Part shown: positions 4,173 through 61,499 of the stretch, in pieces
Position numbering within the stretch: the stretch's first letter is position 1
How the letters are laid out: each line of letters starts with the position of its first letter
Source of the DNA: Octopus vulgaris
Lineage: Eukaryota
Direction of reading: 5' to 3'
Length of the DNA stretch: 64,000 nt
Assembly: GCA_951406725.2 (NCBI GenBank)
Contig: OX597835.1
Coordinates: 45,074,001 to 45,138,000 of the forward strand
The notes under the pieces: model-generated
What the model was told of the DNA's origin: nothing
Database searches by the model: none
What the model saw: only the letters and a program-made list of their open reading frames with translations
Made by a program: the position numbers and the translations under genes

Positions 4173-4333
4173 AAGTGATGGGCTTCTTTCAGTTTCCGTC
4201 TCCCAAATACACCCACAAGGCTTTGGTCGGCCCGAGGCTATAGTATAAGGCTCAAGGTGCCATGCTGTGGAACTGAACCCGGAACCATGTGGTTGGTAAG
4301 CAAGCTACTTTCCACATAGCCACTCCTGCGCCT
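3901..4333 (-). mobile_element. tRNA-derived SINE family A, full length
   Basis: Minus-strand head aggcgcaggagtggct...gggttcagttcc; tail gactgaaacaaataaaagaataaaaga. Confidence 0.9.
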
Positions 4334-4399
4334 AATTTCTTATTTTCCAGATGGCTGGTCACTTGTCTAATCAGAATCGAGCTAAGAGAGCAGCACGCT

Positions 4400-4960
4400 A
4401 TGAAGTGTGGAATTCCATTGTTTTGGTTCAGTGATAGTGGCGTGCATGGAAAGAAAAGCCTTCAATACTACGTCCGGAGACAATAAAAATTTGTCAAACC
4501 TGATGACCGATGACCATAGGCTTTGTGAACGATGCAAGAAGAAGTCGTTCAATCACATCCCGATCGTTGCAACAGTGCGGGAAATGTTTATTCGCATCCC
4601 GCAAAAATCAACAGAGGAAGCAGCTCGTGGAAGCAGACTAACGAGACACGCAATACGCACGGTGTTGCATAAATAATCGAATTTTCGTCCGTGGAAACCC
4701 CATCACGTGCAGGAGCTAAAAGCTGAAGACTGTGACCGCAGAAGTCCCGAACACTCCAAAAAATTTAGATCTCATTCTATAGGATTTTTACCAGTGGGGT
4801 TACACAAAACGGATGTGTCCAAGACAAATCTTCGCACACTGGAGGACTTGGAAACACAGATTCAAGAGGTTTCCAAAGATATCCCAGATCACATCCCCGG
4901 CCTCTTCATTCCATCCATGGCCGTTTAACGAAATTCGCTGTCGCCACCAGTGCTTGCGTT
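4400..4960 (+). pseudogene. Internally deleted Tc1/mariner-superfamily transposase remnant
   Basis: Frameshifted peptides ..IRTVLHK..FRPWKPHHVQELKAEDCDRR and ..TNLRTLEDLETQIQEV resemble the HTH-linker and C-terminal parts of Tc1-like transposases. Confidence 0.5.
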
Positions 4961-5170: not shown

Positions 5171-5335
5171 GTACAGGACACCAAAAAACGTCGAATACAA
5201 TGAGAAACGAAAACATAAACACAAAACCAAGGAAATGGACATTTTTTCTTAAACAACGAAAAAAAAGAGTACAGGACATACAGCACAGGGAACATTCCCC
5301 TTCTTCAGCCGCCTCTGTTTCATCTACTCTGCATA
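5171..5335 (-). mobile_element. 3'-terminal fragment of a (TA)n-inserted repeat (probable PLE-type tail) retaining CTGAAGA
   Basis: Homologous to 32891-33080 and 57793-57970 (gtacaggacacc...gagaaacgaaa..cata..acaaaaccaagg...ccccttcttcagccgcc). Confidence 0.7.
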
Positions 5336-5682: not shown

Positions 5683-5940
5683 TGAGACTCACAGTGCCAA
5701 TCATATCTGTCCGGCATGTGGAAGAGAGTGTAATTTGGCAGGAGGACTTAAACGACATGCGAAGGTACATGAAGCCCAGTTACAACTACAGCCGGCTATT
5801 ACCAGTAAAGGTCTTAGTTGCCAATTTTGTACAAGACCTTGTAGATCTTTAGCTGGGCTAAAAAGTCACATTCGATCACAGCACCAGTAACAGTTAAGCT
5901 TCGTGGAACGGCCATACTCGATAACGAGGGGGCAGCCATA
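5683..5940 (+). mobile_element. 5'-truncated RTE-clade LINE 3' end inserted in (TATG)n
   Basis: Two C2H2-like motifs (CPACGRECNLAGGLKRHAKVH; CQFCTRPCRSLAGLKSHIRSQH*) typical of RTE ORF C-termini, then a short 3' UTR with a ctcg-ataa-cgag hairpin; (TATG)n on both sides. Confidence 0.65.
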
Positions 5941-6742
5941 ATGTATGTATGTATGTATGTATGTATGTATGTATGTATGTATGTATGTATGTATGTATGT
6001 ATGTATGTATGTATGTATGTATGTATGTATGTATGTATGGATGGATGGATGGATGGATGTCATTATTCAGTTTATTTGAAGATTTTTGCCAATAGAGAAC
6101 GAACCGGTTTCTAACCTACAACCAAGGTGCCTTCATTGGAATTTGAACATCAACAACAGCGTACTTTAGTTTGTGTGTATGTATATATGTATGTATGCAT
6201 GTATGTATGGGCATGTGTGTGTGTCTCTCCATCTTATATATACACACAGACACATATATATATCAATATATGTCTTTGGTTACTATTTTTTCTCATTTTT
6301 TCATCTCTAAATATATATATTATATATATATATTTTTTGCAATAATGTAATAAGTCTGATATATCTGATATAGTTATGAGTGTATAAGTCAATGTTTTAT
6401 CAATTGCAGTACCATCAGTTTCTCATTATTTTAATTGGTAGACTCTTTATCACTGATAAACTATTCCCTTGGTCAATTATACAATTCTCCGACTATATTG
6501 AATGCATTAACGTCGCCCACATTGCTATCAGTCTATTCAACCAATCAAATCCTAAATTTTCGCCACGTATGAATCAGTCATTCTGGTTGTGTCTAATTGT
6601 TCTTTTTTCTTGTTTTTTCTTTTATTATATGTCATGTTGAAGCATTTTAAAATTCATTCATTGTTTAAAAATTTTCTTTTCTACTTTTTATTACTCATTT
6701 TCTATTCCTCTTTCTCACGGTATCATCTCTAAAGTACTTTAG

Positions 6743-8502: not shown

Positions 8503-8916
8503 GCAGGAGTGGCTGTGTGGTAAGTAGTTTGCCTACCAACGACATGGTTCTGGGTTCAGTCCCACTGCGTGGCATCTTGGGCTAGTGTCTTCTGCTATAG
8601 CCTCGGGCCGACCAATGCCTTGTGAGTGGATTTGGTAGACGGAAACTGAAAGAAGCCCGTCGTATATATGTATATATATATATATATATATATGTGTATG
8701 TATGTGTATGTGTGTGTGTGTTTGTCCCTCTAGCATTGCTTGACAACCGATGCTGGTGTGTTTACGTCCCCGTTACTTAGCGGTTCGGCAAAAGAGACCG
8801 ATAGAATAAGTACTGGGCTTACAAAGAATAAGTCCCGGAGTCGATTTGCTCGATTAAAGGCGGTGCTCCAGCATGGCCGCAGTCAAATGACTGAAACAAG
8901 TAAAAGAGTAAAAGAG
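8503..8916 (+). mobile_element. tRNA-derived SINE family A, near full length
   Basis: A box tggctgtgtgg, B box gggttcagtcc, (GTAAAAGA)n tail. Confidence 0.92.
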
Positions 8917-9420: not shown

Positions 9421-11520
9421 ATGGCAGTGAACGCTGCAACCACTTGCGATAACAGCACTGTCACCACCACCACCACTAACAACAACAACAACAAGACTAC
9501 TACTGCTACCACCACCGCCTCCACCACCACCACCACCACCACCGCCACATCATCCACTACCTCAACTACCAACAACAACAACAATAATAATGACAACAAG
9601 AATAATAACATTTGCGCCACCATTTCGACATCTGCTGCCACGGCTGTCTCTTCTGCCACTGACACCACCTCCATCAACAAAAACAACAATAACAACAACA
9701 ACAATCCCGTTCAGACCTTGTCTCCTCCAACAACAAGAACTGAAGGGAATAAACAAAAGACTGTGACCACCAAACAAATTGACAAAAGCTGCTTGAATAC
9801 AGGGATAGACTATGCAAGTAATTTTCCACCTTTTCCTACTTGCACAATCAAACCAAATACACCGATTTTACCAACTTCAGCCAACAACAACATCACCACC
9901 AGCAACAACAATAACAAAACAACAACAAATTTCGCCGAGGCGATAAAAGAAAAAAAGACAACAGTATATTTTACTGCACAACAAATAAAAGACACGAACA
10001 TTTTAATAACGGAAGTAAATGGTATAGTAAAAATAAACATACCACAAGAAATATTAGAAGATGAAAAAAAAGAACAATTATATATAAAATAATTAATAAG
10101 AAAACAAAAAGTCCAGAGAAGGCTAACACAAGCAAAATAGAAAAATGCTTGAAACCCATCTGGAACTACAAAGAGTATGTGACCTGGTGGAACAAGTTCG
10201 CACACATACAAGTGGTCTTCCACACTGAAGAGTTAGCAAGACGTTTCTCAACGCTAACTCTTCATTCAGATGAACTTCAACTAACACCAAGCTATCGTGG
10301 ACAGAAAGTGACTAAGATCACTTTAAACAATGTCCCAAAAATAGCTAACAATCTATGGCTAGTAAAGGCCTTATGTGTGAAAATGGAAGATTTCACAATT
10401 TTAGAAACTACGGTCACGGAGCACAAAAACTGGGTGAGAAAAAAAGTAGAATTTCTACTACATATAAACCAAGAGGACATAAAGAAAATACCCACCCAGA
10501 TATGTGTATCAGAAGACCACAAGTTGTATGTGGTCGTCGATGGCAGAAGATCACGTTGCTACATATGCGGCAGTGAGCAACACCTAAAAAGATTGCAAAT
10601 CTGCCGCAAGAAAACAACAGCAACAACAACAGCAGCCGGAAAAAAACAAATAAACCAGCTTTACTACCCACACCACGTTTTGCACGAACAGGACTAATCA
10701 CAGAAAATCAACAAAAAATAAACCTCACCAACCAAACAACCACACCAACTGCACCAAGAACAGAAGCAACACCACCACCAACAACAACCAAGAATAAACC
10801 AACTCCCAAACCAAGGACATCTGCCAAAAAGACACTCATCGAAAATGAAGAAACAATTACTACTCCAAATCCCCACAAAATTGACACCCCAAACAAAACA
10901 ACAATACCTACAATCACTCAAACAAAAAATACCCACACCCCATCTCCAAAACCGCATACACCACAACCTAACGCTCACCAACCAACACCAACAACAAAAT
11001 CAACACAGTCTACGATAGACCCCAATATTTTCCCTCTTCCAAGCTCTGATTCTTCTGATTTGTCATTAGACGAAGAAGACACAGAAGATTGGCAAATAGC
11101 CACAGGGGGGAGAAGAAAAAGGGGAAAAAAGAAAAGAAAAGATAACAAACAAAGCAGGAAGATTCACCACTCCCGAAACAAAAGCATCCACAGAAAACAA
11201 ACACATCAACACAAACACACCATCATCAAACCCCCCAAAAATGTCGACAGCCATAAACACAAACAACCACGATCTAATGGAACACATTAGGTCAAACACC
11301 AACATAACTGAAAACGACATAAAAAAAGTAACCACCCACGCACAACACCACCACAACACATTAAAATAATACATGTAACACAGAACACATACAGCACCCT
11401 GAAATCTCTTTACCTGATGCAGTAGGGAGATTTCAAAAGTATTCATCAAAGAAACTATACAAAAACATCATGGAAGAAGACTGTGAGGTAAAAAACAAAG
11501 GACTTTCGAACAACAAGTAA
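9421..11520 (+). pseudogene. Tx1-type ORF1 (gag-like), frameshifted
   Basis: ATG at 9421; Thr/Asn low-complexity N-terminus; VVVDGRRSRCYICGSEQHLKR..C zinc knuckle at about 10530-10605; basic WQIATGGRRKRGKKKRK motif; several frameshifts and stops; 3' end approximate. Confidence 0.7.
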
Positions 11521-11587
11521 CCTTTTCTCTCTCTCTTTCCTTTTTTGCACTTTCTTTTCGTGTGTAAAACACAATTTTTATCGGAAC

Positions 11588-14500
11588 ATGCTCAGAATAG
11601 GCAGTATAAATGTACGTGGCTTGGGGTCGCCTTGGAAACAAGGCTACCTGTTAAATGACATCAAGTCACTAAATCTGAATATCATAGCCATCAGTGAGAC
11701 CAGACTCCACAGCTTGCGGGCACCCCAGCACAGTTTCGGTACACATTTCAACATTTATTTTTCTCCGTGTCTACCGAGAATGGGCGGAGGTGGCACCACG
11801 GTGCTTCTCCGGAAGAGTCTGGATCTCAAAGTAAGAGCAATTTTCCTAGACCCGGAGGGTAGGCTGGTCGTTTTGGATGTCGATGGCAGCAATGAGTGTG
11901 CTTTTCGACTGATAGCAGTTTATGCTCCGTCCTTAACAGACCGACCAGATTTCTTTCGACGTCTAGATTCTTTCATGGGAACGTCTCGTCCTTTACTTTT
12001 AGTGGGGGATTGGAATGCCACCCTGGACACGCATCTAGACTACGTGGGCAGAGATAGCAATAGAAGGGGATGCAAATGCCTCAAAGACCTGCTCAGACGT
12101 TTCCAACTGTCTGACAAGTACCGACTGGACCACCCGAATGTGCTAATGTGGACATGGAGTAACCGCATCGGGTCGTCCAGATCATACTTAGATAGAGTAT
12201 TCTGTAGGACAATAGATAAAAATAGTGTTGGTTGTCCACAATTTCATATAGTCAGTTACACAGATCACAAGTTTGGGACTTGTACACTTGACTTAGATAA
12301 GACACACAGGCAGGGTCCTGGTTACTGGAAACTGAACGCGTCTTTTACAGCACGACAGGTTTACAGGGACCGGATCAGCACATTAGTTAAGAGAGCTTTG
12401 ACGGGTACTATCATCAACAACAGATGGTGGTATGCCCTAAAAAAAGCAATTAAAGCAGAATCAGTCAGATACAGTAAAGCCCTAGCATTAGACCGAAATA
12501 GAATAGAGGGAGAATTAGTTAAAGTTTTAGAAGAGGCACTTAGAACTGGCATCGCGTCCAACGTGCTGGCGGCGAGATTGGCCCTCGACCAACACCTCAA
12601 CGCCAAACACGAGGGATGCGTTGTCAGAGCTAGGATGCGTGCTCTGAGGAACGAAGGAGTTGGAGCCGCCCAAGAGGCCCGAGTGGTGGAGACGCAACGA
12701 GGCAACAGAGCCACCATCAAGTCTCTTATAGATGAACAGGGGCGCGAATTGCTCGACATTAAAGGATGTGTGGGGCTTTTCAACAACACTTCATCCAACT
12801 GTTTGGGACAAGTGGTGGGTCAGAACGCAGCAAAACAACTGGCAGCAAAACAGGAGTATTCCTGCTTTTGTAAAGCGAGGAGCAGTGGCACTGCTTAAGA
12901 AAGACCCAAACAAGGGGGACGTCATAGATAATTTCAGGCCCATCACTCTGCTCAACGCAGATTTGAAAATTTTGGCCAAGGTGTTAGCCGAGAGGTTGGC
13001 GCTTGTCATCAAGAAACTAATCGACAAGGCGCAAACATGCGCCATGCCGGGTAGAAGTATTCATGACAACCTCCATCTGATGCGCTACATCATAGACAGG
13101 GTAGTTAAGAATCCTGGCATGGGTGGGGCGCTGATCAATTTGGATCAATCAAAAGCTTTCGATAGGGTAGACCATCACTACTTGGAGGCTGTCCTTAAAG
13201 CGGCTGGTTTCGGTCCAGTTTTCCGCGGTTGGATCGCTGCCTTATACAGCGGCATCCGCTCAGTAGTTCGCATAAATGGTCATCTATCCAGACCTTTTAA
13301 CATCATGCGTTCGGTTCGTCAGGGATGCCCCCTCTCATTGCTTCTGTATGTATTGACTCTTAAGCCACTATTGTGGAAACTGGCGACGCCGAGGGGCATC
13401 CCACGATAGCTGGGATGCGGCAGGAGCGTGTCTGCATAAGCGGACGACGTCACCGTCATAGTGTCGAGCCACCAGCACATCGAGCTGGTCGGCGAGACAC
13501 TAAAAGAATACGAAGCGGTAACGGGAGCAAAAATTAACCGGGAAAAGTCAGTGGGCTTGCGGCTCGGCACCTGGAGAAGCAGGCCCATGCCATCCAACAG
13601 CGTCTCCATTGTGGGACGCTGGACGGACGGACCGGTTAATTTGCTCGGGGTCTGGTTCGGTCCGGACCTCCAAATGGAGAAGAACTGGGGCGAGATAACG
13701 ACTAGGGTGGCTACTCTCACCCAGAAATGGGCTGAGAGAAAGCTATCCCTAAAAGGTCGGGCGGAGGTGGCGAACGCGTACATCGCATCCGTCATCGAGT
13801 ATCGTCTGACCGTCGTGCCTTGTCCCGACCCTACCATCACCAAACTGGAACGAATACTCTTCCGCTTCTTGTGGAAGGGAAACGTTCCGATGGTTAGGCG
13901 ATCCATTTGCTGTCAACACCCGCTAAATGGAGGGCTGAGCATGCCGTGGTTGATGATGCGCAGACATGCGCTGAGACTGCGGCATCTCCGGCGCTTCATA
14001 GACAACGGCGAACAGGTGTGGTCGCCTTTTGTGCGGCGCGCTTTCCCGCAGCTCGTCTCCTTGGACGAACTACAGTCATGGATCAAGCAGAGACCGAGGC
14101 TAGGCGAATGGCACCGCGAGTGTCGCGTTGCTCTCAAGCAACTCTGCCGTCCGGGATCGAACTTGTGCGACTCCATCACAACAAAGGCATTCTATAGAGG
14201 ATTAGTGGAGGGGAGGTGCGACGACGAACTCGGGCAGAGTCTGGGCGTCGACGAGGAACACCTGACCCGCCTGTTCAGGACAACTTTCGGGCCGGGACCT
14301 ATGAACAATCACCAAAGATCCCTGGCCTGGTAGTGCTATCGAGAAGCATTACCTGTTCGGGATAAGCTCTACAGACACGGTTCCAGACACACTGGACCGA
14401 CTTGCCCGAGATGCGGTCAGAGCGACGAAACCGTTCTGCAGGCACTCGTGCAATGTCCAACCATTTCAGACCTGTGGGCTTATGCCGAACGGCTGCTGTC

Positions 14501-14822
14501 ACGTGTGGGACGAATCCGCCTATCGGCCGAGTCTACCGTCAGTATTGCTCCGCCCCCTTCCCTCAACCGGGAAGGCAAGGCAGTTTTCATCGTACTGGTG
14601 GCCATGGTGAAAGAATGTGTGTGGTGGACCCCAGCGAAAGGATTAGAGACAAACACTTACCTCTCTGGCCAATCGCTCATCAACTTTTTCAAGTACCACT
14701 TGAAAAGGAAGGTGAGAATGGAGAGGGAAGTTTTGTCTCGCGAAAGATTAAAAAAAAGATGGGTGAATGTTGCAAAGATGGTGCGTGCGAGTGACGAAAC
14801 CATTTTGAGCATGATCCTGTAG
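11588..14822 (+). pseudogene. Tx1/L1 ORF2: apurinic-like endonuclease, reverse transcriptase and C-terminal zinc finger; disrupted
   Basis: APE motifs SINVRGL, ISET, GDWN, YLDRV, YTDH; GPGYWKLN; RT motifs NFRPITLLN, LDQSKAFDRVDH, VRQGCPLS; YADD reads SA*ADD (stop near 13437); CPRCGQSDETVLQALVQC; apparent internal deletion and frameshift near 12760-12880. Confidence 0.93.
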
Positions 14823-17604: not shown

Positions 17605-18930
17605 CACTCATTGAAGTCGTCACGCTGGCTTACAGCGGACTAAAAGTGATTGTAAAAGAAGCTCTACTGTAAGGTAAGACTTTTGTTTTTGGGTCCAGTG
17701 GGAGTTTGTTGTTTGCGGTAATTATTTTTGTACAAGCAAGAAGTCCTCACTGGATTCTAAAATCTGGTCTGCCTCCAGTTGAGCAGTGGTTCACGTTAAG
17801 TGAATATTATTTCTCACTTAATTGTGAAAATTGTTCCTTGGGGGCGTATCGTGCCTCCTAAAAATATGTTCACTTTTTGTGAATTTAAAAAATAATTATG
17901 AGAATTGCTGTTTTGGGGAAGTGTCTTTGCCTCTGAAGATCGAACGACTTGTATACCAGTTTTTGTGGAAGTTGTGTTCCAGTTGTGGTGCTCCGGGTTC
18001 GTCCTTGGTCGGGAGTACCTAGTGGCCGGAAGTTTTTTTTGCTTTGTTTTTTAACTATTGACTTTCTTTCTTCTAAACTTTATTTGACTTTCTGTTTTCG
18101 TGAATTGCTTTCTTTTTCTTTCTTTCATTTTATGTGACTCTTTTCATTTCTTTCTTCTTATTCTTTCTTTTTAAGTTTTATTTTGAACTATTTTCGAACT
18201 TTTATTACAAAAGAAAAAACAACATGGCAATGAAAAAAAGACAATGTCTTGGAGTGGAAATTATACCATCCAAACGGTGGTTGAAAGACCGTGAAGAGAC
18301 AACGGTGGTGTTGAGGACTTACTCCAAGCCGCTTGACACCGTCGCCCTATTTGACAAGACTGTAATTGAAAAGGAATTGGCAGAGTATCTCCCAACTATT
18401 AAATTCACTTCCAAGGGGGTCAAATACGCCACGGTGTGGTTGCTATTTGACACCCCTGAAGAAGCTCGCAAATTTGAGAGCAAATAAATTAGAGAGCAAA
18501 TAAATTTTCTTTCTTCCATCGTATTGTGGGAAGAGGTTGACGAGAGCTTGGATCAGCGGGTTTCCACCCGGGATAAAACCCGAATGGATAGAGGAGACTA
18601 TCCGCTAGGGTCTGGGTGGCAGCTGAGCCAAGTTTCTTAATGTAAAAGTTTATTCTGCAATTCATTGGGTCAAAAGCTGTTTTGACCCGGTAGACCCAAT
18701 CAGCCAATCTGTTTTTTCCAGATGTTTTTAAAATGGCCGGGTGCAGGTACCCGCTGATTCTTGAGGGTGGCTCCCCGCCATGTGTCATCGCTGTCTGAAG
18801 CCTGGCCATATAAAGAAAAAATGTCTCCAGTAAGATCCTGGAGCAGTGGATTGAGACATCTGTAGAAGAGGGAACGAAGGCGGCGGAGGCGGCGGAGGAC
18901 TCCTCAAGAAGGGCCGCAAGGGGAAGAAGC
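17605..18930 (+). mobile_element. ORF1-only Tx1-like element, degenerate and 3'-deleted, inside a family A SINE
   Basis: Homologous to 52031-54230; ATG at 18224 (..EIIPSKRWLKDREETTVVLRTYSK..); CHRCLKPGHIKKKC knuckle near 18783; SINE head at 17571-17603 and SINE 3' half at about 18925-19180. Confidence 0.8.
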
Positions 18931-21560: not shown

Positions 21561-23147
21561 TTCGGTGAGGTCTCTCTCTTATCTCATTTCGAGAAGCACT
21601 TCTTGTTTTCAATCTTTTTCCTGTTAATTTTGAAGTAAATTGCTAAGCACAGCTGGTTTCTTAAAATATGATATACTTATGAGGTTTCACGTTTCAAGTT
21701 TGCTTTTTTCTTTTTTTTAGCATCCTTTGTCAACATTGATTACATTGAAAATTAGTTATTCCTCTCTGATTTTGCCGGAACCTGTTCTATACTAATCGTA
21801 TGACTACGATCAATCGAATTAACTTCCATCTTTAGACGCCATTTCTTTAACTCTGTGCGGTTATCTCCTCTTCAAATACCACAATGTCTAGGTCACTGCA
21901 ACTGCAACACCATTTACTAAAATTGCTTATCTTTCTGGCGCTATCACTAATCTAATGAAGATTGCAAATTTAGTAAATGTCTGCATTTCGTTTCATCTAT
22001 TTATTTATTTTTCATTCAAATGACTTCATATTCTTGTTATCGTTGTTGCTCTTATAACTTGTGCTGCGCAGTGTTTCATTCGTGCTTCTGTAACGGTTAA
22101 TTAATTTGTTGCTTCTTTTTTTTCTTTTACTTATTTAAAGAATTTTACTGAACAAAGCCAGAATTTTGTCATCAGTTAATGTAGTCTTTGATTTAAAGAA
22201 TTAGTTTAGCATAATGTATTATATAAATAAAGTTTTCGTAGTAGTTGAGGTTGTTCAACCGCGATTGACGAAACGTATAATGGTTTCTAATATCGGCGCA
22301 AGTTTTGAAATGTGTGGAAGGAAGCTATTCGATTACATGGTTCCCAGTGCATGACTGGTACTTTATTTTACCGCTCACGATAAAATTTGAACGGAAACCA
22401 TAATGAGCCGAAAGATACGCCGCTAGACAATTTGTTTGACGCGTCAGGAATTTAGTAATTGTTAAACGGTCTAATCGAAATTTGACCCTAGAAGAATCCA
22501 AAGGGTTTTTAACGAAATATGCTGGGAAAAGATTTCAGGGGTATTTAACTACAGTTTCTAATAACCGAGTGCTTCAACATATGGAGTGTTAGGTACCTAG
22601 TCATTTTACATATGTAGCAATAAAAAGATGTAGATAGGCGTGCGTATTTTCACTGTCTCTGTTTCACTCTGCTTCCTATCATATATGCATGAGTGAAGGC
22701 CTATGAGGTGGCTCTAATGGGAAAGCAGGAGTTTGCGTTAACGTCGATTTCAGCGTGGAAACCTATCTGTTTCTCTCTCTGTCTCTGTCTGTCTATCTGT
22801 CTATCTGTCTGCTTGTCTGTCTGTATGTCTGTCTCTCTGTATCTCTATCTCTCCCTGTCTCTCGGTCTCTCTCTCTAATTCTGAACCTATATCACAGATG
22901 CACAATTACATAAATTGATAGATATTATTGCGCACATATGTTTCCTAAAATTTGCCACAGTCAAAATGACTGAAACACGTAAGAGAATAAAATAGTATAT
23001 ATATATACATATATATATATATAATAAGAGTAAACAATAGCTTTAATGGTTTTTAAAAAAACCCAACAATTATTTACTGGTAGATTTCGGTATCTAAATA
23101 TTACAATTAACGGTAGGAACTTCAACAGAAGTTCAATATATATATTG

Positions 23148-23434
23148 TATATAAATAAAAATGGCAGGCAACAGGCAATTTAGCCACATAACGAAAAAAT
23201 TAGAAATAGCAGTCAAAGACTGTTTATTTCTATTTTCTACAAAGACTCCACATACGACATACCCGTGTAATTCACATATATATAAAACATATGTTTTGTA
23301 TATGTGAATTACACAGATATGTTGTATGTGGAGTCTTATTTGTAGAAAATAGAAATAAACCGTCTTTGACTGCTATTTCTAATTTTTTCGGTATGTGGCT
23401 AAGCAACCTGTTGCCTGCCTTTTTTTATTTATAT
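23148..23434. repeat. Fold-back inverted duplication (about 140-bp arms, centre 23290/23291) within (TA)n
   Basis: ggcaggcaacagg..ttagaaatagcagtcaaagac..aaaacat | atgtttt..gtctttgactgctatttctaa..cctgttgcctgcc. Confidence 0.9.
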
Positions 23435-23435
23435 A

Positions 23436-23472
<37 letters not shown>

Positions 23473-24397: not shown

Positions 24398-24480
24398 AAT
24401 ATTAGGGAATAAATCCAACTTTACAGGGAAAAAAATCAGATTTACGATTAAATCCAATTTTATAGTAAAATATTATAAAA

Positions 24481-24633
24481 TATTATTAGAGACAAAACCA
24501 CTATTTTGCAAAACAAACAAGGAAAGACTTAATCAATACGTAAAATTTTAATAAATAGTCAAAATATTTATAAAATTTTATGTATTGATTAAGTCTTTCC
24601 TTGTTTATTTTGCAAAATAGTGGTTTTGTCTCT

Positions 24634-24640
<7 letters not shown>
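24481..24640. repeat. Fold-back inverted duplication (70-bp arms, 20-nt spacer) with a one-sided extension 24395-24480
   Basis: tattattagagacaaaaccactattttgcaaaa... / ...ttttgcaaaatagtggttttgtctctaataata; flanked by (TA)n. Confidence 0.92.
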
Positions 24641-24690
<50 letters not shown>

Positions 24691-24882
24691 CACACATATA
24701 TATATATATGTTTCTCCCGCCGTTCACTATTTTCCTCTCGTTCAGTTCTAACGACCCTCCATGGTTTGTTTTCGTTCTGTTTCCTTGCATGTCTCCACCG
24801 TCATTTTTTGTTCCCAGCTTTCACTCTACATAAATCCGAAATTTTATTTTAGAATTTATGAGAACAACTGTCTTTGAAGTCG

Positions 24883-24947
24883 CATATTGTCGTTGAATGT
24901 TTGAAATGATGAATAGATAGACAGCCGACAACTGATGAAGGTTGATT
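24883..24947 (+). ncRNA. Candidate permuted hammerhead-like motif (UH-GAAA-CUGAUGA order)
   Basis: ca-TA-ttgtcg...GAAA-tg...cgacaa-CTGATGA; stem I ttgtcg/cgacaa, stem III ca/tg, stem II decayed. Confidence 0.5.
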
Positions 24948-25209
24948 TCTCAGTGTGAACTTGTCCTGCTTAGCCATAAACATATATATATATATTCCAC
25001 ACGCGCCAGCTTAAATCAATCCGTCTTTTGTCGAAATATGCCTGTTGATATGTCCTCTTATAATTCTTATTGTATTTTATTTATTGTATTTATATTTGTA
25101 TAACATTGCCCGTTTTTTCCGTCCTTGTTTTTGTATACATTCGCTGCTTTCTTTCAAGGAATGTAATGCTCTTAGCTTAGTTTTTCTTTGGGGCTGGCCA
25201 GATTGGTGG

Positions 25210-25279
25210 AATATGAAGAATAATCAGCCGAAATTGAGAAGATAATCTGGTTATTGACTGAAGAAAGAATGCTTCGATT
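25210..25279 (+). ncRNA. Candidate permuted hammerhead-like motif, degenerate
   Basis: aa-TA-tgaagaat-aatcagcc-GAAA-tt...gttattga-CTGAAGA; same spacing as 24883 and 33014; related to the 28698/44959 repeat. Confidence 0.4.
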
Positions 25280-26079
25280 GACCCGTCCTTGTTTTCTTTG
25301 TATCGTCTATCTGGATGTTTTGTTTTCCCTTTTGGTATCACCTACTTGTCCAGATGTTTTGCGTTCTTGTCCCATTTTGTATTATATACATATGTATATT
25401 ACATATACACACAGAAACGCAAACAGTTCGGGCCCACTAGCAGTTCGGCAAGTGGACTCGATACCATAAGTACCAGGGTTTAAAAAAAGTACGTCCGTTC
25501 TCTCATTCGATTGAAAATTCTTAAAGGTTTTGACCTACCATGGTCGTAGTCTAATGACTGAAACAAGCACATGATAAAAGATACATACACATACGCACAC
25601 ACGCGCACACACGCATACACACACAAGCCCATACTTAGATTCACCATCGCATAAGCAGCTACTGCAGAAAACAGAAACTGGCGCCACACCAGCTTTCATT
25701 CGACAAGGTGTATCATGTTCCAAACTATACAATATTACCTCGACAACCATGTCTATAGTTGCGATACTATATTATGTGCTGAGGGTATTTTATGGTAGAA
25801 ATGCCACCAATAATAAAATTACAAAATGTTTTGTTCAAAAATTGAAATGTTTACGGCTAAGCAATTTCTCTGCGGTTATATATGTGTACAGAATCCCACA
25901 CATAACCATATCACACACATACACACACACGTACAAATTCACTTATGCAAGTCTATACATATATATGTATATAATTGTGTATATATTGTGATGTATTTAT
26001 ATATATATATATATAAATGTATATATAAATCAATATGCATATACATATGTGTATGTGTGTATGTAAATATATATGTATG

Positions 26080-28607: not shown

Positions 28608-28697
<90 letters not shown>

Positions 28698-28698
<1 letters not shown>

Positions 28699-28834
28699 TA
28701 AGGTATGTAGAAAAATACAACATGGACAAGAACGTATAACTCTTAGAAGACGATACAATAAACACGGACAGGACATTCGAAACCCTCAGTCTTCAGTCAA
28801 GAACCGGATCATCGTAGTAATTTCGGCTGATTAA
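28698..28834 (-). mobile_element. 137-bp (TA)n-bounded insertion (probable PLE-type 3' end) with GAAA...CTGAAGA
   Basis: Exact reverse complement of 44959-45095 by eye. Confidence 0.85.
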
Positions 28835-28886
28835 TATATATATATATATATATATATGTGTATATATATATATGTGTGTGTATATA

Positions 28887-31028: not shown

Positions 31029-31154
31029 ATTTATTATATAGAAGGAGCTTCTACAGGACTAGAACTGTTTCATTCAAGAGAAATCTTCAGGAAGCTTCCT
31101 GAAGATTTCTCTTGAATGAAACAGTTCTAGTCCTGTAGAAGCTCCTTCTATATA

Positions 31155-31160
<6 letters not shown>
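31029..31160. repeat. Perfect 132-bp palindrome carrying a hammerhead on both strands; one-sided extension 30961-31028
   Basis: Centre AAG|CTT at 31094/31095; arms are exactly complementary by eye. Confidence 0.95.
31093..31143 (+). ncRNA. Type I hammerhead ribozyme motif (mirror copy at 31046-31096, minus strand)
   Basis: agcttc-CTGAAGA-t-ttc(tctt)gaa-t-GAAA-cag(ttctagtc)ctg-TA-gaagct; GUA cleavage triplet. Confidence 0.8.
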
Positions 31161-32469: not shown

Positions 32470-32740
32470 TGGAGGCGCAATGGCCTAGTGGACAGCGGAC
32501 TCGCGGTCACAGGATCGCGGTTTCGATTCCCAGACTGGGCGTTGTGAGTGTTTATTGAGCGAAAACACCTAAAAGCTCCACGAGGCTCCGGCAGGGGGTG
32601 GTGATCCCTGCTGTTCTCTTTTACCACTCTTTCTCTCACTCTTTCTTCTGTTGGCCTGCTCGCTTAGCCAGCGGGGTGGCGTCATTTGAAGCGATGTGTA
32701 ACAACATCTGATGGTCTGGTCGGTCACGTGATCACGTGAT
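32470..32740 (+). mobile_element. SINE family B
   Basis: Homologous to 371-675 with small deletions. Confidence 0.9.
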
Positions 32741-32796: not shown

Positions 32797-33013
32797 GTAT
32801 AAAGACATATATATATATATGCATATATACATACATATATGTACATACCTACATCTATATGTATATATACATGCATATATATATATATAAGAGTACAGGA
32901 CACCACAAATAAACGTAGAACACAACGAGAAACGAAAACATAAAAACAAACAAGGAAACGGACTTTTTTTAACAATGAAAAACAGAGTATAAGACAAACA
33001 ATACAAGGAATAT

Positions 33014-33076
33014 TCCCCTTCATCAGCTGCCCCTGGTTCGACTCAATGCGTGTTTCGAAGATAAGGGCAGAACACG
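33014..33076 (-). ncRNA. Best-preserved permuted (pseudoknotted) hammerhead-like motif, within the (TA)n-bounded repeat 32891-33260
   Basis: Minus strand: cgtg-TT-ctgccctt-a-tcttc-GAAA-cacg-(14 nt)-aggggcag-CTGATGA-a-gggga; all three stems can pair. Confidence 0.6.
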
Positions 33077-33434
33077 ACCCGGACAAAGCAGTCCTTCCTG
33101 CAAAATGAATTTTAAAAAATTCTTTTGCAGAGGGGTAAAAAAAGTGACAAGAAGAGGACGTAAAAGCAATGCAAATAAATAAAAATACAGTACATATCGC
33201 GAATAAAACAGGACAGGGAAACAAACATTAAGTGCTTTTTGAAGCCTAGACGGTGGAATACATGTATATATGTATGTAAATATGTATATATATATATATA
33301 CACACACACAGATATATATATATGCGTACATATATACATTCTATATGTATGTGTATATATATACATATACACATATATACATATATATGTATATATATAT
33401 GTATATATATATGTATGGATATATGTATGTATAC

Positions 33435-35892: not shown

Positions 35893-36213
35893 TACAGAGA
35901 TGTACTTGCATAGCAAGTGACTTGATCTGAGATCGTGTGCTGGAACGAAAACAGTTGCAGCGTTGAAGGTGTTTATAAGCCATTTAAGAAACACACAAAA
36001 ACCGTTAGATTCACTTCAACATTTAAATTTAATTTGTGAAAATATTTTCGACGCTTTGAGACCGCGACCTGTTAGCACGATATTTTTGTCAGTGAACAGG
36101 TCGCGGTCTGAAAGCGACGAAAATATTTTGGCAAATTAAATTTAAATGTTGAAGTGAATGTAACGGTTTTTGTGTGTTTCTTAAATGGCTTACAAACACC
36201 TTCCACGCTGCAA
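35893..36213. mobile_element. Inverted PLE-type terminal repeat pair with a G3-C8 hammerhead (36085-36135, plus strand)
   Basis: Arms 35955-36073 and 36095-36213; extra tail on the left; tttgtca-GTGAACA-g-gtcgc..gcgac-GAAA-atat-TT-tggcaaa. Confidence 0.8.
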
Positions 36214-38127: not shown

Positions 38128-38599
38128 CTGGTCATTTGATACTAACAGAAAAAGGAAATTGTCCAAGGCTGTAGAGATTAATATATTTGATTTGGTCGAG
38201 GCAGTCTCGTCTTTTCTGAATTTTTCCTGCAAGTTTGAAATTCTTGAAGCACGTTACAACTGGAAATTGATGTGTTTCGCACGTTTATGTATAATGTTGT
38301 TGTCACGTACGGGATGATCTAAAGAAAGTATGACAAAAGGGCAGAATGAGAAATAAATGGACGAAAGAAAGAGGCAGTAGAAATATATTTATTCCCCTAT
38401 TTTTCGTTTTCCCACTTTCATAGAGCTATTTCATCTATGTGATGTACTGGTCACATGGTCGAGTGCCTATCACCTTATAGATTCATCGGAGCTTCGAACA
38501 TAAAATGTCAATGTATGTATATATGTGTGTATATGATTGAAGAAGACGGAACATTTTGAAACACCTATGCATACACAAACTAGCCGAACTAAGAACACT

Positions 38600-39145
38600 A
38601 CAGCCCCGTTGCCTGTTCACTATGAAAAAGGCAATCAGCTAGCATTCTTGAACGTATTAATAATAGGCACCACGTATGGAGTCAGGACATCCGTATACCG
38701 CAAGCCGACCTTCACTGGACAATACCAGAACTTTAACTCTCACCAGCCATACAGTGTAAAGAGGGGGATTGCTCAGTGCCTAAAACATCGAGTAATGAAT
38801 ATTATTACCGATCGTGATAAACATCACGAAGAACTGATCAAGCTCAGTAACAATCTATTAAGCAACAACTACCACAAAAGCATACTCTCCACTCCAATTA
38901 TGAAGAAAAGAGAGGATGAAGCCGATAAAGTTTCCACAGTCTGTCTACCCTATGTGAAAGGTCTCTCCGAAAAGATACAAAAGATATGACATCAGGACAG
39001 TATTCAAGAGTAATACAACACTTCATAAATAACTCCTTCGTGTAAAAACACCAATAGAAGAGAATATGACCAAAGACTGCGTGTACACCATCCCATGCAG
39101 CTCTGGGAGGTCAAACAAAGGCGAAACATGACGCCCTCTGAAAAT
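38600..39145 (+). pseudogene. Penelope-like element remnant: RT C-terminus/thumb and GIY-YIG start
   Basis: EKGNQLAFLNV..TSVYRKPTFTGQYQNFNSHQP..VCLPYVKGLSEKI, then ..CVYTIPCS..GET..RPLK; stops and frameshifts. Confidence 0.88.
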
Positions 39146-39989
39146 CTTTGCTATTCTGGAGTGATTTCGATGTCACATTCGTTGAAAGCATGCGGAATAT
39201 CTTGAATAAGGAAAAAAAAACATGAAACAAAACTCCGTTGCCGGGAAACTCAGAATCTCCCGTTGACCCAACGGGTCACGAGTAGTCTATGCATAAATGG
39301 GTACAGGACGTCAAAAACCGTAAACAACATGAAATACGAAAACTAATATGTTGAATAGGCAAACGAGAGAAACAAATGGAAAACAGGACAAGTAACATAA
39401 AGAACGACCCTTCATCTGTTGTCGGCTCTCCATCCATGATCGTGTATGTCCATCCATGTCGGCTGTTCATCCATGATCGTGTATTAATGCCATTGTGAAA
39501 TTGTTCACCTTTTTCATAACTGCCACGAGAGACTCATTCAAAACAAACCTGTGGTCGATTGCATTACACTTGACATCGTGGAGATCAATGAGAACCAAAT
39601 ATGAGTGTGCTGCAGAGAGAGCGTGACTTATGGTTGCCAGAAACTCATACGGCAGAGAACCACAGCTTGGTCGTCGGAAAGGAGATTTTTTTTGCTGTAA
39701 GTGTAAGTGTGGTTAATAAACATTAAGTCCAATGTGTTTTTGTAAAATCTCGCTGGTACGAGCATCACGTGTTTCTTCTGGGGTTGAAATGCACACACCT
39801 GTTTTCAAGAATAATTAAAATCACAAAGTTTTGGCCGGTCCGACGCTATAGCAGAAGACACTTTTACAATGTGCTACGTGGTGTAATAGAACCTAGATCC
39901 ATATGGTTTGGAAACAAACTTCTTACCACACACCTATATGTTTGACGCTTCAAATATCGCAGCAACTCTTAACAAAACTACAAATATTT

Positions 39990-44398: not shown

Positions 44399-44946
44399 CG
44401 GAGATGTACTCGCATAGCAAGTAATTTGATCTGAGATCGTGTGCTGAAACGAAAACAATTGCAGCGTGGAAGGTATTTATAAGCCATTTAAGAAACACAC
44501 AAAAGCCGTTCAATTCACTTCAACATTTAAGTTTAATTTGTCAAAATATTTTCGTCGCTAAAATCCGCGACCTGTTCACTGACAAAGTCCGTGCTGCATC
44601 TAAGAAAGTAACAGTTAGTTCGTCATATATATGCACGTATGTATGTGTGTATGTATGCATACATGCGTACATACATACACATATGTATGCATACATATGT
44701 ATGCATACATGTATGCATGCGTACATACATACACATATGTATGCATACATACACACATACATACGTACATATATATGACGAACTAACTGTTACTTTCTTA
44801 GATGCAGCACGGACTTTGTCAGTGAACAGGTCGCGGATTTTAGCGACGAAAATATTTTGACAAATTAAACTTAAATGTTGAAGTGAATCGAACGGCTTTT
44901 GTGTGTTTCTTAAATGGCTTATAAACACCTTCCACGCTGCAATTGT
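44396..44946. mobile_element. Inverted PLE-type terminal repeat pair (210-bp arms) with two intact G3-C8 hammerhead motifs
   Basis: Arms 44455-44664 and 44737-44946; HHR at 44815-44864(+) and 44537-44586(-); same family as 35893-36213. Confidence 0.88.
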
Positions 44947-44958
44947 GTTATATATATA

Positions 44959-45091
44959 TTAATCAGCCGAAATTACTACGATGATCCGGTTCTTGACTGA
45001 AGACTGAGGGTTTCGAATGTCCTGTCCGTGTTTATTGTATCGTCTTCTAAGAGTTATACGTTCTTGTCCATGTTGTATTTTTCTACATACC

Positions 45092-45095
<4 letters not shown>
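44959..45095 (+). mobile_element. 137-bp (TA)n-bounded insertion identical to 28698-28834 (inverted)
   Basis: ttaatcagccGAAAttactacgatgatccggttcttgaCTGAAGA...ctacataccttaa. Confidence 0.85.
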
Positions 45096-45148
<53 letters not shown>

Positions 45149-45153
<5 letters not shown>

Positions 45154-45425
45154 TTAGTGAATTGAAGAAATGGAGTTGAACGAAGATTGAACAGAATTCC
45201 TTTTATTGCATTCTACACATGTTTCAAAAGCCACAATTTTCCAAATTTTGATTAAATAAGGATACCATATTGTGGCTTTCTCTTCAGGAAAGAGAAAGCC
45301 ACAATATGGTATCCTTATTTAATCAAAATTTGGAAAATTGTGGCTTTTGAAACATGTGTAGAATGCAATAAAAGGAATTCTGTTCAATCTTCGTTCAACT
45401 CCATTTCTTCAATTCACTAATAATA
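45149..45425. repeat. Near-perfect fold-back (136-bp arms, 5-nt loop) with a hammerhead at 45211-45290(-); right-side extension to about 45580
   Basis: Minus strand: ttc-CTGAAGA-gaaagccacaa(...)ttgtggctttt-GAAA-catgtg-TA-gaa. Confidence 0.9.
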
Positions 45426-45747: not shown

Positions 45748-46132
45748 TATCGTGGATCTCCGTCGGTTACGACGAGGTGGGTTCCAGCTGATCCGATAAA
45801 CGAAACAGCCTGCTCGTGAAATTAACGTGCAAGTGGCTGAGCACTCCATAGACACGTGTACCCATAGCGTAGGTCTCGAGGAAATTGAGCGTGACACAGA
45901 GTGTGACAAGATTGGACCTTTGAAATACAGATACAACATAAACAGGAAGAAAGATTGAAAGAAAGTTTTGGTGAAAGAGTACAACAGGGTTCGCCACCAC
46001 CCCCTGCCGGAGCCTTGTGGGGCTTTAGGTGTTTTCACTCAATAAGATCTCACAACTCCCAGTCTGGGAATCGAAACCGCGATCCTACGACTGCGAGTCT
46101 GCTGCCCTAGCGACTGGGCTTTTGCACCTCCA
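45748..46132 (-). mobile_element. SINE family B, long-tail variant
   Basis: Family B head on the minus strand; tail shared with the fragment at about 2975-3095. Confidence 0.85.
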
Positions 46133-47189
46133 CGATATATATACACACACAAGTATAACCAAAGAAACCCGTTAGAAAATGTCTCGGAGATGAAAGTAGT
46201 AAATATACAGAGAAGTAATGTTTGTCCCTTCAACACGTCTGTTCCGCACGATATGACGTTACTACCATTTTTAACCCTTACGGAAACCTCCTCTAGCTGG
46301 TTACCGATACACTCTGCACCCGACATATATTGTAAACATTGGAGCGAACCCCTGTCATTGCCCTAGCAAAATAAAAGGCAAATTCCGTCTCTGCGGAATT
46401 TGAACTCAGAACATAAAGACGGACGTAATGCTATCCGGTGTGCTAACGTTTCTGTCCGTCCACCACCTTAGTATTCGTTAGTATTTGGGGCTCTGCAATA
46501 TTTCTCCTGACAAATATGTGAAACTAAATATTTATGCCATAGTTATACTAGGAAGCTGTTGTTCCTTTCAAGGTGAATAATTTCAGGTGTGAAAACAGTG
46601 TAACACATCGAATAAACATAAAGAAAGTATATAAAACGAACTTTATACAGATTTAGATTAAGTTCTATGAAATAACAGGGACCTCGTCAGGGGAGAGTCA
46701 TATAAACAGCATAACCTGTGAACTGATATTTTATGTACCACTGATTAGTTGGAGGTGTGACCGACCTCTGTGGTACGACTGGTACACTTGTCATACGGAT
46801 TATGATAGATTCTTGACTCCTAAGTAATGAGAGGTTTTGTGTACAATTTTTGTTCGTCGAATCATTCCTTACGTAATTTATTTCTTATTTAGCTTCTCAC
46901 AACTTAATTTACCTTAAAATTTGAAAATGTTTACAATCTTTCATTTTAATTAAAAATATCTTGGTGTTCTAATAAGAGTCTAACAAGACACCATATCTTG
47001 TAAATGCTATTGACTTTAAGTAAATACTTTTATAATTATTTTAGTAGGAGTTTAGAATAATCAGATCAATAATATTTTAAGAATCTTAATAAAATAAACG
47101 TAGTGAAATCCTCTGGGCTTATTGATGTTTAGAAAAGTTTATCGAAAGAAAATTTATTGTAATTATATAAAATTTATTAAACCAAAACA

Positions 47190-54887: not shown

Positions 54888-55875
54888 AGGCCAACAGAAG
54901 AAAGAGTGAGAGAAAGTTGTGGCGAAAGAGTACAGCAGGGATCACCACCACCCCCTGCCGGAGCCCCGAGGAGCTTTGGGTGTTTTCGCTCAATAAACAC
55001 ACACAACGCCCGGTCTGGGAATCGAAACCGCGATCCTACGACCGCGAGTCCGCTGCCCTAATCACTAGGCCATATAGGTATATATATATATACTCTTTCT
55101 CACGTTTCAGTCAAATGCCTACACCCATCTTGGAGCACCACCTTAGTCGAAGGGATCGATCCGAGGACTTATTCTTTGTAAGCCTGGAACACATTCTATC
55201 GCTGCCTTCTGCCGAAGCGCTAAGTTTCGGTGACATAAACACACCCTCATTGGTTGTGAAGTGAGGATGGAGGGACAAACTCAAACACAATAACACACAC
55301 ACACGTAATTATATATACATATATGTGGCTGTGTGGTAAATAGCTTGCTAACCAACCACATGGTTCCGGGTTCAGTCCCACTGCGTGACATCTTGGGCAA
55401 GTGTCTTCTGCTATAGCCCCGGGCAGACCAATGCCTTGTGAGTGGATTTGGTAGACGGAAACTGAAAGAAGCCTGTTGTGTATATGTATATATATATGTA
55501 TATGTATGTGTGTGTTTGTGTGTCTGTGTTTGTCCCCCTAGCATTGCTTGACAACCGATACTGGTGTGTTTACGTCCCCGTCACCCAGCGGTTCCGCAAA
55601 AGAGACCGATAGAATAAGTACTGGGGTCGATTTGCTCGACTAAAGGCGGTGCTCCAGCATGGCCTCAGTCAAATGACTGAAACAAGTAAAAGAGTAAAAG
55701 AGTATATATGTATATAAACGACGGGATTTTTTCAGTTTCCATCTAACAAATCTACTCATAGTGATTTGCTTGGCCCGATGCTATAGTAGAAGAAATCTGC
55801 CCAAGGTGCCACGCAGTGTGACTGAACCCGGAATCATGTGGTTGGGAAGCAAGGTTCTAACAACACAGCCACGTC
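54888..55875. mobile_element. SINE cluster: family B head (-) 54888-55074, family A tail (-) about 55092-55290, family A (+) 55325-55703, family A head (-) about 55716-55875
   Basis: Homology to the copies above. Confidence 0.88.
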
Positions 55876-56574
55876 TGTGCGTATGTGTCACACATAGGTT
55901 TGAGTCTATCGCATACCTATTTGACGAAGCTGCCTTCTAACGTAATCGATCTTGAAACGGCATTATTTCACAGCAAACGTCTTAATCACATCTGTATACC
56001 TGCATGCCTATTGCGTTTTCAGCTCTGATAGTTATTTGCGATAAACAGGAAAAAGAGAATATAGTACAAAAGAAACAACGAATGGAAGAAGAGCAGAATA
56101 AAATAACTCCTTTTGAAACTCAAACAGGTGCAAATAAAAAGTACGCAAACAAGTAAAATACTATAATATTCTCCACAATTTCGAAAAGCTTTGTGTTGAA
56201 GGCAAAAAAAAAAGTAATATTTGAGAAGGAAATCTTAGTAAAGTGCTAATCATGTGTTTTAAAGGCATCGTAATTCTGGAGATAGGAAATGCAAAGATGT
56301 GTACTCAGAATAATCACTGAAATCAAATTAGTTTTGTAAATGAAAGCGAGTGAATAACGGTCGAGTATTATTAAGATACATACGGAAGCAATGCAAGAAA
56401 CTGAGAAAAAGAAGAATGAAATACGGGGGTACAATAGAGGCAAAAATATTTCCATCAAAGATATCACATGCTTAAATACATAATACAAAGTAAGTGTATA
56501 AACGAGGATGTATTTATAAGTGAGTGTGTGACTGTGCAGGTATGTATATATTTACGAATCTTGCATGTGTATAT

Positions 56575-57792: not shown

Positions 57793-57970
57793 AAGGACAC
57801 GAAAAAAAAAAAACACATCGAAGACAATGAGAAACGAAACCATAAAAACAAAACCAAGGAAAAGGACATATTTTTTTAAACAACGAAAAAACAGAGTACA
57901 AGACATACAACACAAGGAAAATTCCCTTTCTTCAGCCGCCTCCGTTTTGTCTACTCCATGTTTCGAAGGT
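57793..57970 (-). mobile_element. PLE-type tail with truncated permuted motif (GAAA...CTGAAGA), abutting a family B-like SINE at 57968-58200(+)
   Basis: Minus strand: ccttc-GAAA-catggagtagacaaaacggaggcgg-CTGAAGA-aaggg. Confidence 0.7.
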
Positions 57971-58200
57971 GGGTTCAAATCTCAGATCGGGCGACGAGTG
58001 TGTGTTTATGAGCGAAAAATCTAAGCTCGACGCGGCTACAGTAGAAGGTAATGGCAAACTTCTGATGACTCTATCGCCACAACTTTCTCTCACTCTTTCC
58101 TCCTGCATCTTGCAGGTCACATGCGAGGTACCGGCGTCCCAGGATACCGGGAAACCGGCCTTATGAGCCAGGCGTGGCTCGAAAAGGAGCAGGCAAAATT

Positions 58201-61404: not shown

Positions 61405-61499
61405 TATGTATATATTGAAAACAACACAAATCATATTAAAATTCCTTTACAGATAAGGGAGGCTAGCCTTATTTAAGCCCATTTTTTTCATTCTAGAGG

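Follow-up and report, generated by a model that had tools for sequence, protein, structure and literature searches.

A six-helix hammerhead fold in repeats of Octopus vulgaris and its likely origin in Naiad-type 3′ ends

Three repeat families in the window, a 64,000-nucleotide stretch of Octopus vulgaris contig OX597835.1, almost certainly carry one conserved six-helix fold with a complete hammerhead core in non-circular order. The fold is likely the 3′ end of a Naiad-type element and is predicted to cut RNA after the UH dinucleotide, a joint reading to which we give a probability of about three in four. On the modelled structure it would be a real new variant form of the hammerhead, within the non-circular class of Eckert et al. 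2023, whose chain ends exit through two helices at the A9/G10.1 step.

Six helices surround a complete hammerhead core

From 5′ to 3′, the strands run P5, P6 hairpin, II, P4, III′, UH, I, II′, GAAA, III, P4′, I′, CUGANGA and P5′. The 5′ strand of stem II lies upstream of the cleavage site (24862-66, 25192-97 and 33097-93) and is followed directly by P4, whose partner stands just before the second strand of stem I. P6 is a hairpin abutting G10.1 on its 5′ side; P5 is formed by the strand that precedes P6 and the one that immediately follows A9. Three complete copies of the motif are found in the window (24822-24944+, 25146-25272+ and 33135-33015-); they have their helices in common and not their sequence, and families A, B and C show negligible local sequence similarity to one another.

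24822..24944, plus strand: complete six-helix motif of family B; P5 24822-27/24939-44; P6 hairpin 24829-60; II 24862-66/24898-902; P4 24868-73/24919-24; III 24881-84/24907-10; UA 24885-86, predicted cut 24886^24887; I 24887-92/24926-31; GAAA 24903-06; CUGAUGA 24932-38
25146..25272, plus strand: complete six-helix motif of family C; P5 25146-53/25265-72; P6 25154-91; II 25192-97/25224-29; P4 25198-204/25244-50; III 25207-11/25234-38; UH 25212-13, predicted cut 25213^25214; I 25214-19/25252-57; GAAA 25230-33; CUGAAGA 25258-64
33015..33135, minus strand: complete motif of family A, the best preserved; P5 33135-31/33019-15; P6 33130-098; II 33097-93/33061-57; P4 33091-84/33040-33; III 33076-73/33052-49; UU 33072-71, predicted cut 33071^33070; I 33070-65/33032-27; GAAA 33056-53; CUGAUGA 33026-20

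The core (C3-U4-G5-A6-N7-G8-A9, G12-A13-A14-A15.1 and U16.1-H17) is complete in 3/3 full copies, with its blocks in the order S-G-C, as in the core first read. Among the 40 of 68 difference rows listed for contigs of other genomes (see below), core changes are limited to N7 and H17. All of stems I, II and III adjoin the core, and the 10.1-11.1 pair is G-C except in copy B, which has G-U there against G-C in its family majority. The A9-G10.1 junction is neither direct nor of 1-2 bases, as P5′ comes after A9 and the P6 hairpin before G10.1. Stem I has 6/6 Watson-Crick pairs in family B (24887/24926) and family A (33070/33032) and just 3/6 in the window copy of family C (25214/25252). Stem II and P4 pair at 5/5 and 6/6 positions in B, 6/6 and 7/7 in C, and 5/5 and 7/8 in A; for P5 and P6 the pairs are 5/5 and 8/8 in A, 5/6 and 11/13 in B, and 7 and 8 in C. 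An initial annotation of this DNA had described stem II as decayed or as carrying an inserted segment. Stem II is intact once paired with its upstream strand, so decay falls away; the suggested insertion came near the mark, corresponding to the P5/P6 module at A9/G10.1. The helices beyond I-III, namely P4, P5 and P6, had been missed.

The letters and spacings of that annotation were all found in the sequence when letters and coordinates were rechecked: the distance from GAAA to the start of CUGA is 30 (33056-), 29 (24903+), 28 (25230+), 28 (44969+) and 29 nt (57964-), and the gap from H to GAAA in complete copies is 14, 16 and 16 nt. The cores of the five copies it had listed are real; only three copies are complete, those at 44969 and 57964 (and also 28824) being 5′-truncated, without the cleavage-site block. 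A sixth copy with the 28-nt spacing lies at 28838-28693(-). Two of the eight CUGANGA sites with GAAA 28-30 nt upstream (4723+ and 19871-) are strays that lie outside all of the families and do not pass the helix test, so spacing by itself is weak, non-specific evidence.

We then compared the window with shuffled sequence. A search in S-G-C order with stem I of at least 6 and stem III of at least 2 pairs gave 2 window matches versus 0.02 per dinucleotide shuffle, and 0/100 shuffles scored as high, the outcome that the earlier claim of a motif had called for. A four-helix descriptor, written after the window copies had been seen, matched these three copies and nothing else (mean 0.002 per shuffle, 0/1000 as high), which bears out a real RNA motif with a permuted hammerhead core. 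Because the descriptor postdates sight of the copies, the upstream flank alone was also shuffled with the core held fixed. The II+P4 score was equalled in 73, 25 and 67 of 2000 such shuffles for the three copies, and the observed P5+P6 score was reached in 4, 2 and 2 of 500; a loose P5+P6 test was passed in 326, 463 and 421 of 500. Strands pair at 87/96 positions within their own family versus 143/288 across families, in agreement with the proposal that structure rather than sequence is conserved in the three families.

Conventional searches gave no counterpart. Rfam returned no ribozyme family among the best 150 of 342 matches on the whole window (microsatellite matches), and no hammerhead model at E<=10 on 24700-25420. 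Descriptors for types I, II and III (orders CGS, GSC and SCG) with nested stems found no strict match in the window; a palindrome at 31029-31160 gives a false type I match on both strands. Type GCS, with the cleavage block downstream, produced 5 loose matches and was rejected because it needs bulges and a G-U-rich stem I, has no strict match, and because family majorities mend the upstream block. Two more distant candidates for P5, at 24750-58 for family B and 25179-85 for family C, were dropped for nearer strands abutting P6. The former belongs to a second copy of the family B P5 strand (24750-24762(+), 70 nt upstream of the first) that pairs 9/9 with the strand after the core of the 39426 copy and is possibly a nested fragment of a related element.

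Related copies preserve the predicted pairs

Contigs of four public DNA-type runs (three organisms) were aligned to 24760-25390 at 80% likeness. They were placed in numbers of 11,708, 10,676, 6,886 and 6,458 per run, and families B and C are thus highly repeated. Majority letters, known from 40 of 68 difference rows listed, mend stems I, II and III rather than lose them, so the pairings persist in the family majorities as they should on the initial reading. In family B, the majority restores C11.1 and brings stem II to 5/5 and stem III to 4/4 Watson-Crick pairs. In family C, stem I rises from 3/6 to 5/6 pairs and stem III from 3/5 to 4/5, H17 is C, and 25154 T>C and 25187 T>C both improve P6. 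The A>C change at 25253, in the majority of all 4 runs, repairs a mismatch that had been noted as mended in a relative. A second A>C change, at 25213 (majority in runs X2, X3 and X4), makes the cleavage dinucleotide of family C UC, correcting the UA given earlier for this family. Pair 24864:24900 is A-U in the window copy and G-C in the majority, and pair 25216:25255 is A-U in runs X2, X3 and X4 and G-C in X9.

More distant copies came from metagenome contigs. A core-spacing pattern, taken from published Naiad ends already parsed by eye, retrieved at least 120 loci (L165-L284; about 190 in all), 98 of which form two related families resembling the published Acropora Naiad end. The four-helix test was passed by 65 of the at least 120 loci, 14 of 120 having fewer than 55 nt upstream, and 57 of these 65 also possess P5 and P6. 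None of the control loci with similar core spacing passed it (0/120 viral and 0/44 GTDB), and the family A and family C patterns gave 0 and 0 matches in GTDB.

Alignment A2 comprises 42 of the 48 full-flank copies, 6 with indels having been left out, and has 95.3% of its cells paired versus 27-45% for slid partners. Both-side changes occur at one pair each in P5 (19 rows), P4 (20) and stem I (19), each a single event between the two families; the count of covarying pairs (4) does not beat a column shuffle (223 of 500), and stems II, III and P6 of A2 show no covariation. RNAalifold on A2 recovers P5, P4 and III unaided. It also places part of CUGAUGA, together with the stem I′ strand, in pairs with bases upstream, and the nested MFE fold of copy A buries the core, indicating that inactive folds compete. 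At their 3′ side the metagenome copies stop at a fixed point, in most of them 57-70 nt past CUGAUGA; their 5′ ends are ragged. No 5′-end pile-up at the predicted cut is seen in the 98 copies, a count that is no test because the pattern itself required bases upstream of the cut.

The fold points to Naiad 3′ ends

The families are represented in the window by the following copies:

24710..24980, plus strand: family B repeat copy, T-rich, between two (TA)n tracts
25068..25390, plus strand: family C repeat copy, ending at a (TA)-rich tract
32895..33260, minus strand: family A repeat copy, between (TA)-rich tracts
57809..57968, minus strand: family A copy, 5′-truncated about 10 nt after the predicted cut, keeping the GAAA and CUGAAGA blocks only
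5173..5321, minus strand: family A copy, 5′-truncated further, keeping the CUGAAGA block and tail
44955..45100, plus strand: family C relative, its 5′ end lost to about 7 nt past the predicted cut, 78% alike to the 25258 copy over 88 nt
28693..28838, minus strand: family C relative, truncated at the same point as 44955-45100 and identical to it over 146 nt
39300..39437, minus strand: family B copy, 5′-truncated at P4′, core mutated

Contig cover of the family B copy falls mostly on 24826-24957, and the bounds of the family C copy are marked by a rise in depth at 25068 and loose (TA)n ends behind 25388 (4 runs each). The family A copy ending at 57968 is 79.5% alike over 161 nt to the 33026 copy, and the strand following the core of the mutated copy at 39300..39437 pairs with P5 of the family majority at 6/6 positions. 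Recent duplication or co-mobilisation would account for the identical copies at 28693-28838 and 44955-45100. Insertion into (TA)n and 5′ truncation are both found in families A, B and C; the truncated window copies (n=5) begin 7-35 nt downstream of the predicted cut, and not one coincides with it. The window copies are dispersed singles, and the repeat copies of 270-370 nt are too short to reach an ORF. The family B copy at 24710..24980 is likely the 5′-truncated 3′ end of a Naiad-type element whose identity we infer from its relatives. Copies B and C are decayed and probably weak or dead; candidates for activity are copy A and the majority sequences of the families.

The initial annotation expected a Penelope-like reverse transcriptase (RT) as the autonomous parent, and a Naiad RT does lie upstream of the same fold in the metagenome: its C terminus precedes the motif by about 330 nt on the same strand in five loci (L227, L229, L172, L216 and L201). 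Full-length relatives of this RT (54 matches) have an N-terminal GIY-YIG, a CxC motif and DKA before the RT, which Craig et al. 2021 (PMC8557442) give as marks of Naiads. The same study reports that Naiads lack canonical hammerheads, prefer (TA)n targets and undergo 5′ truncation, and flags 8 Naiad records, Naiad_Ovul included, as HHR_half_core, with no structure given there for the half-cores.

The 3′ passages of about 26 of the 54 Naiad consensuses of that study were inspected by eye rather than by script, and 11 of them show the six-helix-type fold. Six are named by the next header (Amil, Aacu, Anas, Obim, Ovul and Esco) and five by file position (Beroe, Clytia, Morbakka, Pomphorhynchus and an ostracod); by eye, Beroe has a short stem I, and Aacu and Esco contain mismatches. 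In the passages of Naiad_Obim and Naiad_Ovul, the six stem I pairs are the same as in window copy A. Six nematode consensuses appear to end in an intact type CSG with P4, the stem I-II helix. By the same inspection, 3 mussel records have a twister-like motif and no hammerhead core, 1 Saccoglossus record does not fit the fold, and 5 chelicerate or ostracod passages contain CUGACGA in other arrangements. The fold is therefore not universal among Naiads, being absent from the mussel records and from L285-L290.

Neither tblastn nor the A1 profile found a Naiad protein match in the window, and it is the fold, the (TA)n targets and the stem I match that point to a Naiad parent for A, B and C. On these sequence features, the window families probably derive from Naiads. 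A competing view, that they are non-autonomous retrozyme-like elements or the ends of another Penelope clade that gained the fold independently, is unlikely. It would suit the lack of any ORF joined to families A-C in the window, the difference of their tails from the published Octopus Naiad tail, and the two Penelope-like fragments in the window (38537-38989 and 61477-61800), which do not match the Naiad profile. Against it, helix order and spacing are as in Naiad ends, copy A shares its stem I letters with Naiad_Obim/Ovul in the passages inspected, and the (TA)n targets and 5′ truncation are those described for Naiads in PMC8557442. It would moreover change the vehicle and not the ribozyme, and a non-autonomous derivative moved by Naiads is compatible with the Naiad-type origin that we prefer.

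Taken more widely, we lean towards the view that active non-circular hammerheads form the ends of Naiads in ctenophores, cnidarians, rotifer-line animals, nematodes, arthropods and cephalopods; these would be CSG in nematodes and a seventh topology elsewhere, with bivalves having swapped to twister. The two CSG metagenome sequences of Eckert et al. 2023 may themselves be Naiad fragments. Naiad proteins were found in 0/9 viral contig candidates, and the only Naiads observed in head-to-tail tandem were those of L286-L289, whose motif is a different one.

Loci L285-L289 are full-length Naiads present as eukaryotic contamination in GTDB contigs, and have a twister-like motif in P5-type order rather than a hammerhead:

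L285:3401-3467: twister-like motif
L286:2372-2449: twister-like motif
L287/L288:2372-2449 and 6210-6287: twister-like motifs
L289:594-671 and 4325-4402: twister-like motifs

A simple twister descriptor matches after each ORF (0.04 matches per shuffle), with one stray minus-strand match in L285 and none in L290 or L293; Rfam did not report the motif at E<=0.5. SECIS elements (RF00031) are located in Naiad 3′ UTRs at L286:2058-2120 and 5843-5905, L288:2058-2120 and 5896-5958, and L290:1271-1334, in agreement with the selenoprotein Naiads described by Craig et al. 2021 (PMC8557442).

Predicted cleavage and its possible role

Judged by the modelled fold, intact members are likely to cleave. Stems I, II and III would dock into the standard hammerhead core, and P4 would take the role of the stem I-II helix that is required in type SGC (PMC10085705), replacing the contact between loops I and II. 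PMC3088659 describes pseudoknots that replace this contact in many natural hammerheads. P5 and P6 would bulge out at A9/G10.1, with P5 carrying the chain ends. One extra base appears to be tolerated at this step, both in the SGC and CSG descriptors (PMC10085705) and in minimal Penelope hammerheads (PMC4209133). The literature searched held no precedent for a helix inserted there, so the core might not tolerate the insertion. Trimming after a CSG unit had been duplicated in tandem would give this form, which amounts to the CSG/SGC circle opened at a new place.

The cut would fall about 125 nt before the 3′ end of the element. In a read-through or tandem (pLTR) transcript, cleavage in the upstream copy would place the 5′ end of element RNA of unit length within the terminal repeat, about 125 nt in. 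P5, II, P4 and III (about 20-30 bp) would hold both products together, and we propose that re-ligation or circles would thereby be favoured. The predicted site is intact on both sides in genomic copies, and in PMC11167929 cleavage by the Anolis PAc hammerhead needed protein and was dispensable for insertion in vitro; both speak against a necessary role in insertion.

The same data raise the quite improbable alternative of a hammerhead-derived fold that serves as a protein-binding or 3′-end signal for the Naiad RT and cuts poorly or only with protein. Competing nested folds that bury the core would fit such a signal, as would the intact site of inserted copies, the behaviour of Anolis PAc, and the poor in vitro cleavage of minimal Penelope hammerheads reported in PMC4209133. 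However, the families differ in all helix letters and yet retain CUGANGA, GAAA and UH, and by eye the same core is kept across the ctenophore, cnidarian, mollusc and arthropod records inspected. In addition, the corresponding position in other Naiads is occupied by the twister-like motif, a sign that cleavage is what selection has maintained.

Should the six-helix ribozyme be active as predicted, non-circular ribozymes would be most numerous in animal genomes, at thousands of copies in each, rather than in viroid-like RNAs, and circles of element RNA may form from the clamped products. Such activity would remove the anomaly of Naiads 'lacking' canonical hammerheads while having 8 unexplained half-cores, and would allow tests, in the most abundant clade, of what ribozymes do in Penelope-like transposition. 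Non-circular permutations, so far known from the RNAs of uncultured metatranscriptomes, would then be a high-copy feature of animal chromosomes. Since Rfam and published descriptors miss the form, invertebrate hammerheads would be undercounted. The A9/G10.1 step would be a place where whole helices plug into the core, useful for ribozyme switches.

Comparison with known hammerheads

Eckert et al. 2023 (PMC10085705) split the hammerhead into blocks S, G and C and counted six permutations, because the blocks were assumed to be uninterruptible. They validated SGC, from metatranscriptomes only, and CSG, from two metagenome sequences, with none in genomes of known organisms; these non-circular hammerheads cleave in vitro (PMC10085705). 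The strand order in the window is one that this scheme assumed impossible, and it breaks the assumption that CUGANGA is inseparable from its stem II strand.

Type SGC (HRIMA-1 and variants, PMC10085705) is alike in the order cleavage site, GAAA, CUGANGA with similar spacing, in a short linker between stems I and II, and in an extra helix joining the far ends of these stems, here P4, which has a compensatory change in A2. The second stem II strand of SGC comes directly after CUGAUGA(U); that of the window form precedes the cleavage site, and the A9/G10.1 step holds two additional helices. SGC is known only from metatranscriptomes; the window form sits in an animal genome. The published SGC descriptors (PMC10085705) require the downstream strand and CUGAUGAG/CUGAUGAUG, and so cannot match the window form. 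Type CSG has the same circular strand order, and II-P4-III′-UH-I-II′-GAAA-III is contiguous in both; the chain ends of CSG lie between III and P4′, with A9/G10.1 closed, while the window form joins III to P4′ and opens inside the helix inserted at A9/G10.1. An intact block C, with the stem II strand directly after CUGANGA, was found by the same criteria in 0/3 window copies and 0/284 loci (metagenome, viral and GTDB). Although it should act in the manner of types SGC and CSG, the fold stands outside both, because block C is split.

These counts make it very doubtful that the motif is a plain type SGC, with its stem II strand just after CUGANGA and stem II decayed. The bases after CUGAUGA-A in copy A can indeed form 5 bp, two of them G-U, with the strand before GAAA. 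Yet at four or more Watson-Crick pairs, pairing is downstream in none of the window copies or loci versus upstream in 3 and 65, and the downstream strand pairs as P5 instead, with compensatory change. Chance pairing of T-rich and purine-rich strands around decayed type I hammerheads is barely credible: loose descriptors do give chance matches in the window (34598+ and those in GCS order) and the low-stringency P5+P6 test passes in 65-93% of flank shuffles, but the observed scores are rare in the same shuffles, 0/164 control loci pass, majority letters from other genomes mend exactly the predicted pairs, and no GAAA follows CUGANGA in any of families A, B and C.

The six-helix fold also shares features with other elements. 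The pLTR hammerheads of Penelope/Poseidon, Neptune and Hydra (PMC4209133, PMC8557442) are alike in a core near the 3′ end of a Penelope-like element, and the minimal hammerheads of Penelope have a conserved extra base between positions 9 and 10.1, where the window form has its insertion. They are circular permutations with nested stems that often need dimers, whereas the window form, doubly pseudoknotted and with a long stem III, should fold as a monomer. Naiads (Craig et al. 2021, PMC8557442) are alike in (TA)n targets, 5′ truncation and a fixed 3′ end, and differ from the window families, which have no ORF attached. Non-LTR retrozymes (10.64898/2026.07.22.740005) are likewise short, non-coding, hammerhead-bearing repeats derived from Penelope-like termini; they are tandem units, each with a type I hammerhead, the type treated in that preprint, whereas the window copies are dispersed singles. 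No description of the fold was found in literature searches that excluded subscription journals and bioRxiv supplements.

Other features of the window

The AT-rich DNA of the window abounds in (TA)n tracts, short repeats resembling tRNAs and broken retroelements. The two broken Penelope-like protein fragments (38537-38989(+) and 61477-61800(+)) match neither Pfam nor the Naiad profile; by eye, the second resembles the Hydra-clade alignment of Craig et al. 2021 (PMC8557442). An L1/Tx1-type LINE at 10065-14822(+) is near-complete and frameshifted, with an endonuclease (PF03372), and zinc-knuckle ORF1-like sequence is present in two copies (52708-53580(-) and 18216-18926). Two tRNA-like short repeat families are abundant, and we take them to resemble octopus SINEs. 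The first lies at 372-673, 32472-32738, 45941-46133, 54888-55073 and 57971-58102, and a fragment of it is fused to the family A copy ending at 57968; the second is seen at 8722-8916 and in many other copies. Long inverted repeats occur at 31029-31160, 45180-45340, 24470-24653, 23136-23447, 35955-36213 and 56567-57747, and a further one (44452-44949) adjoins the family C relative at 44955.
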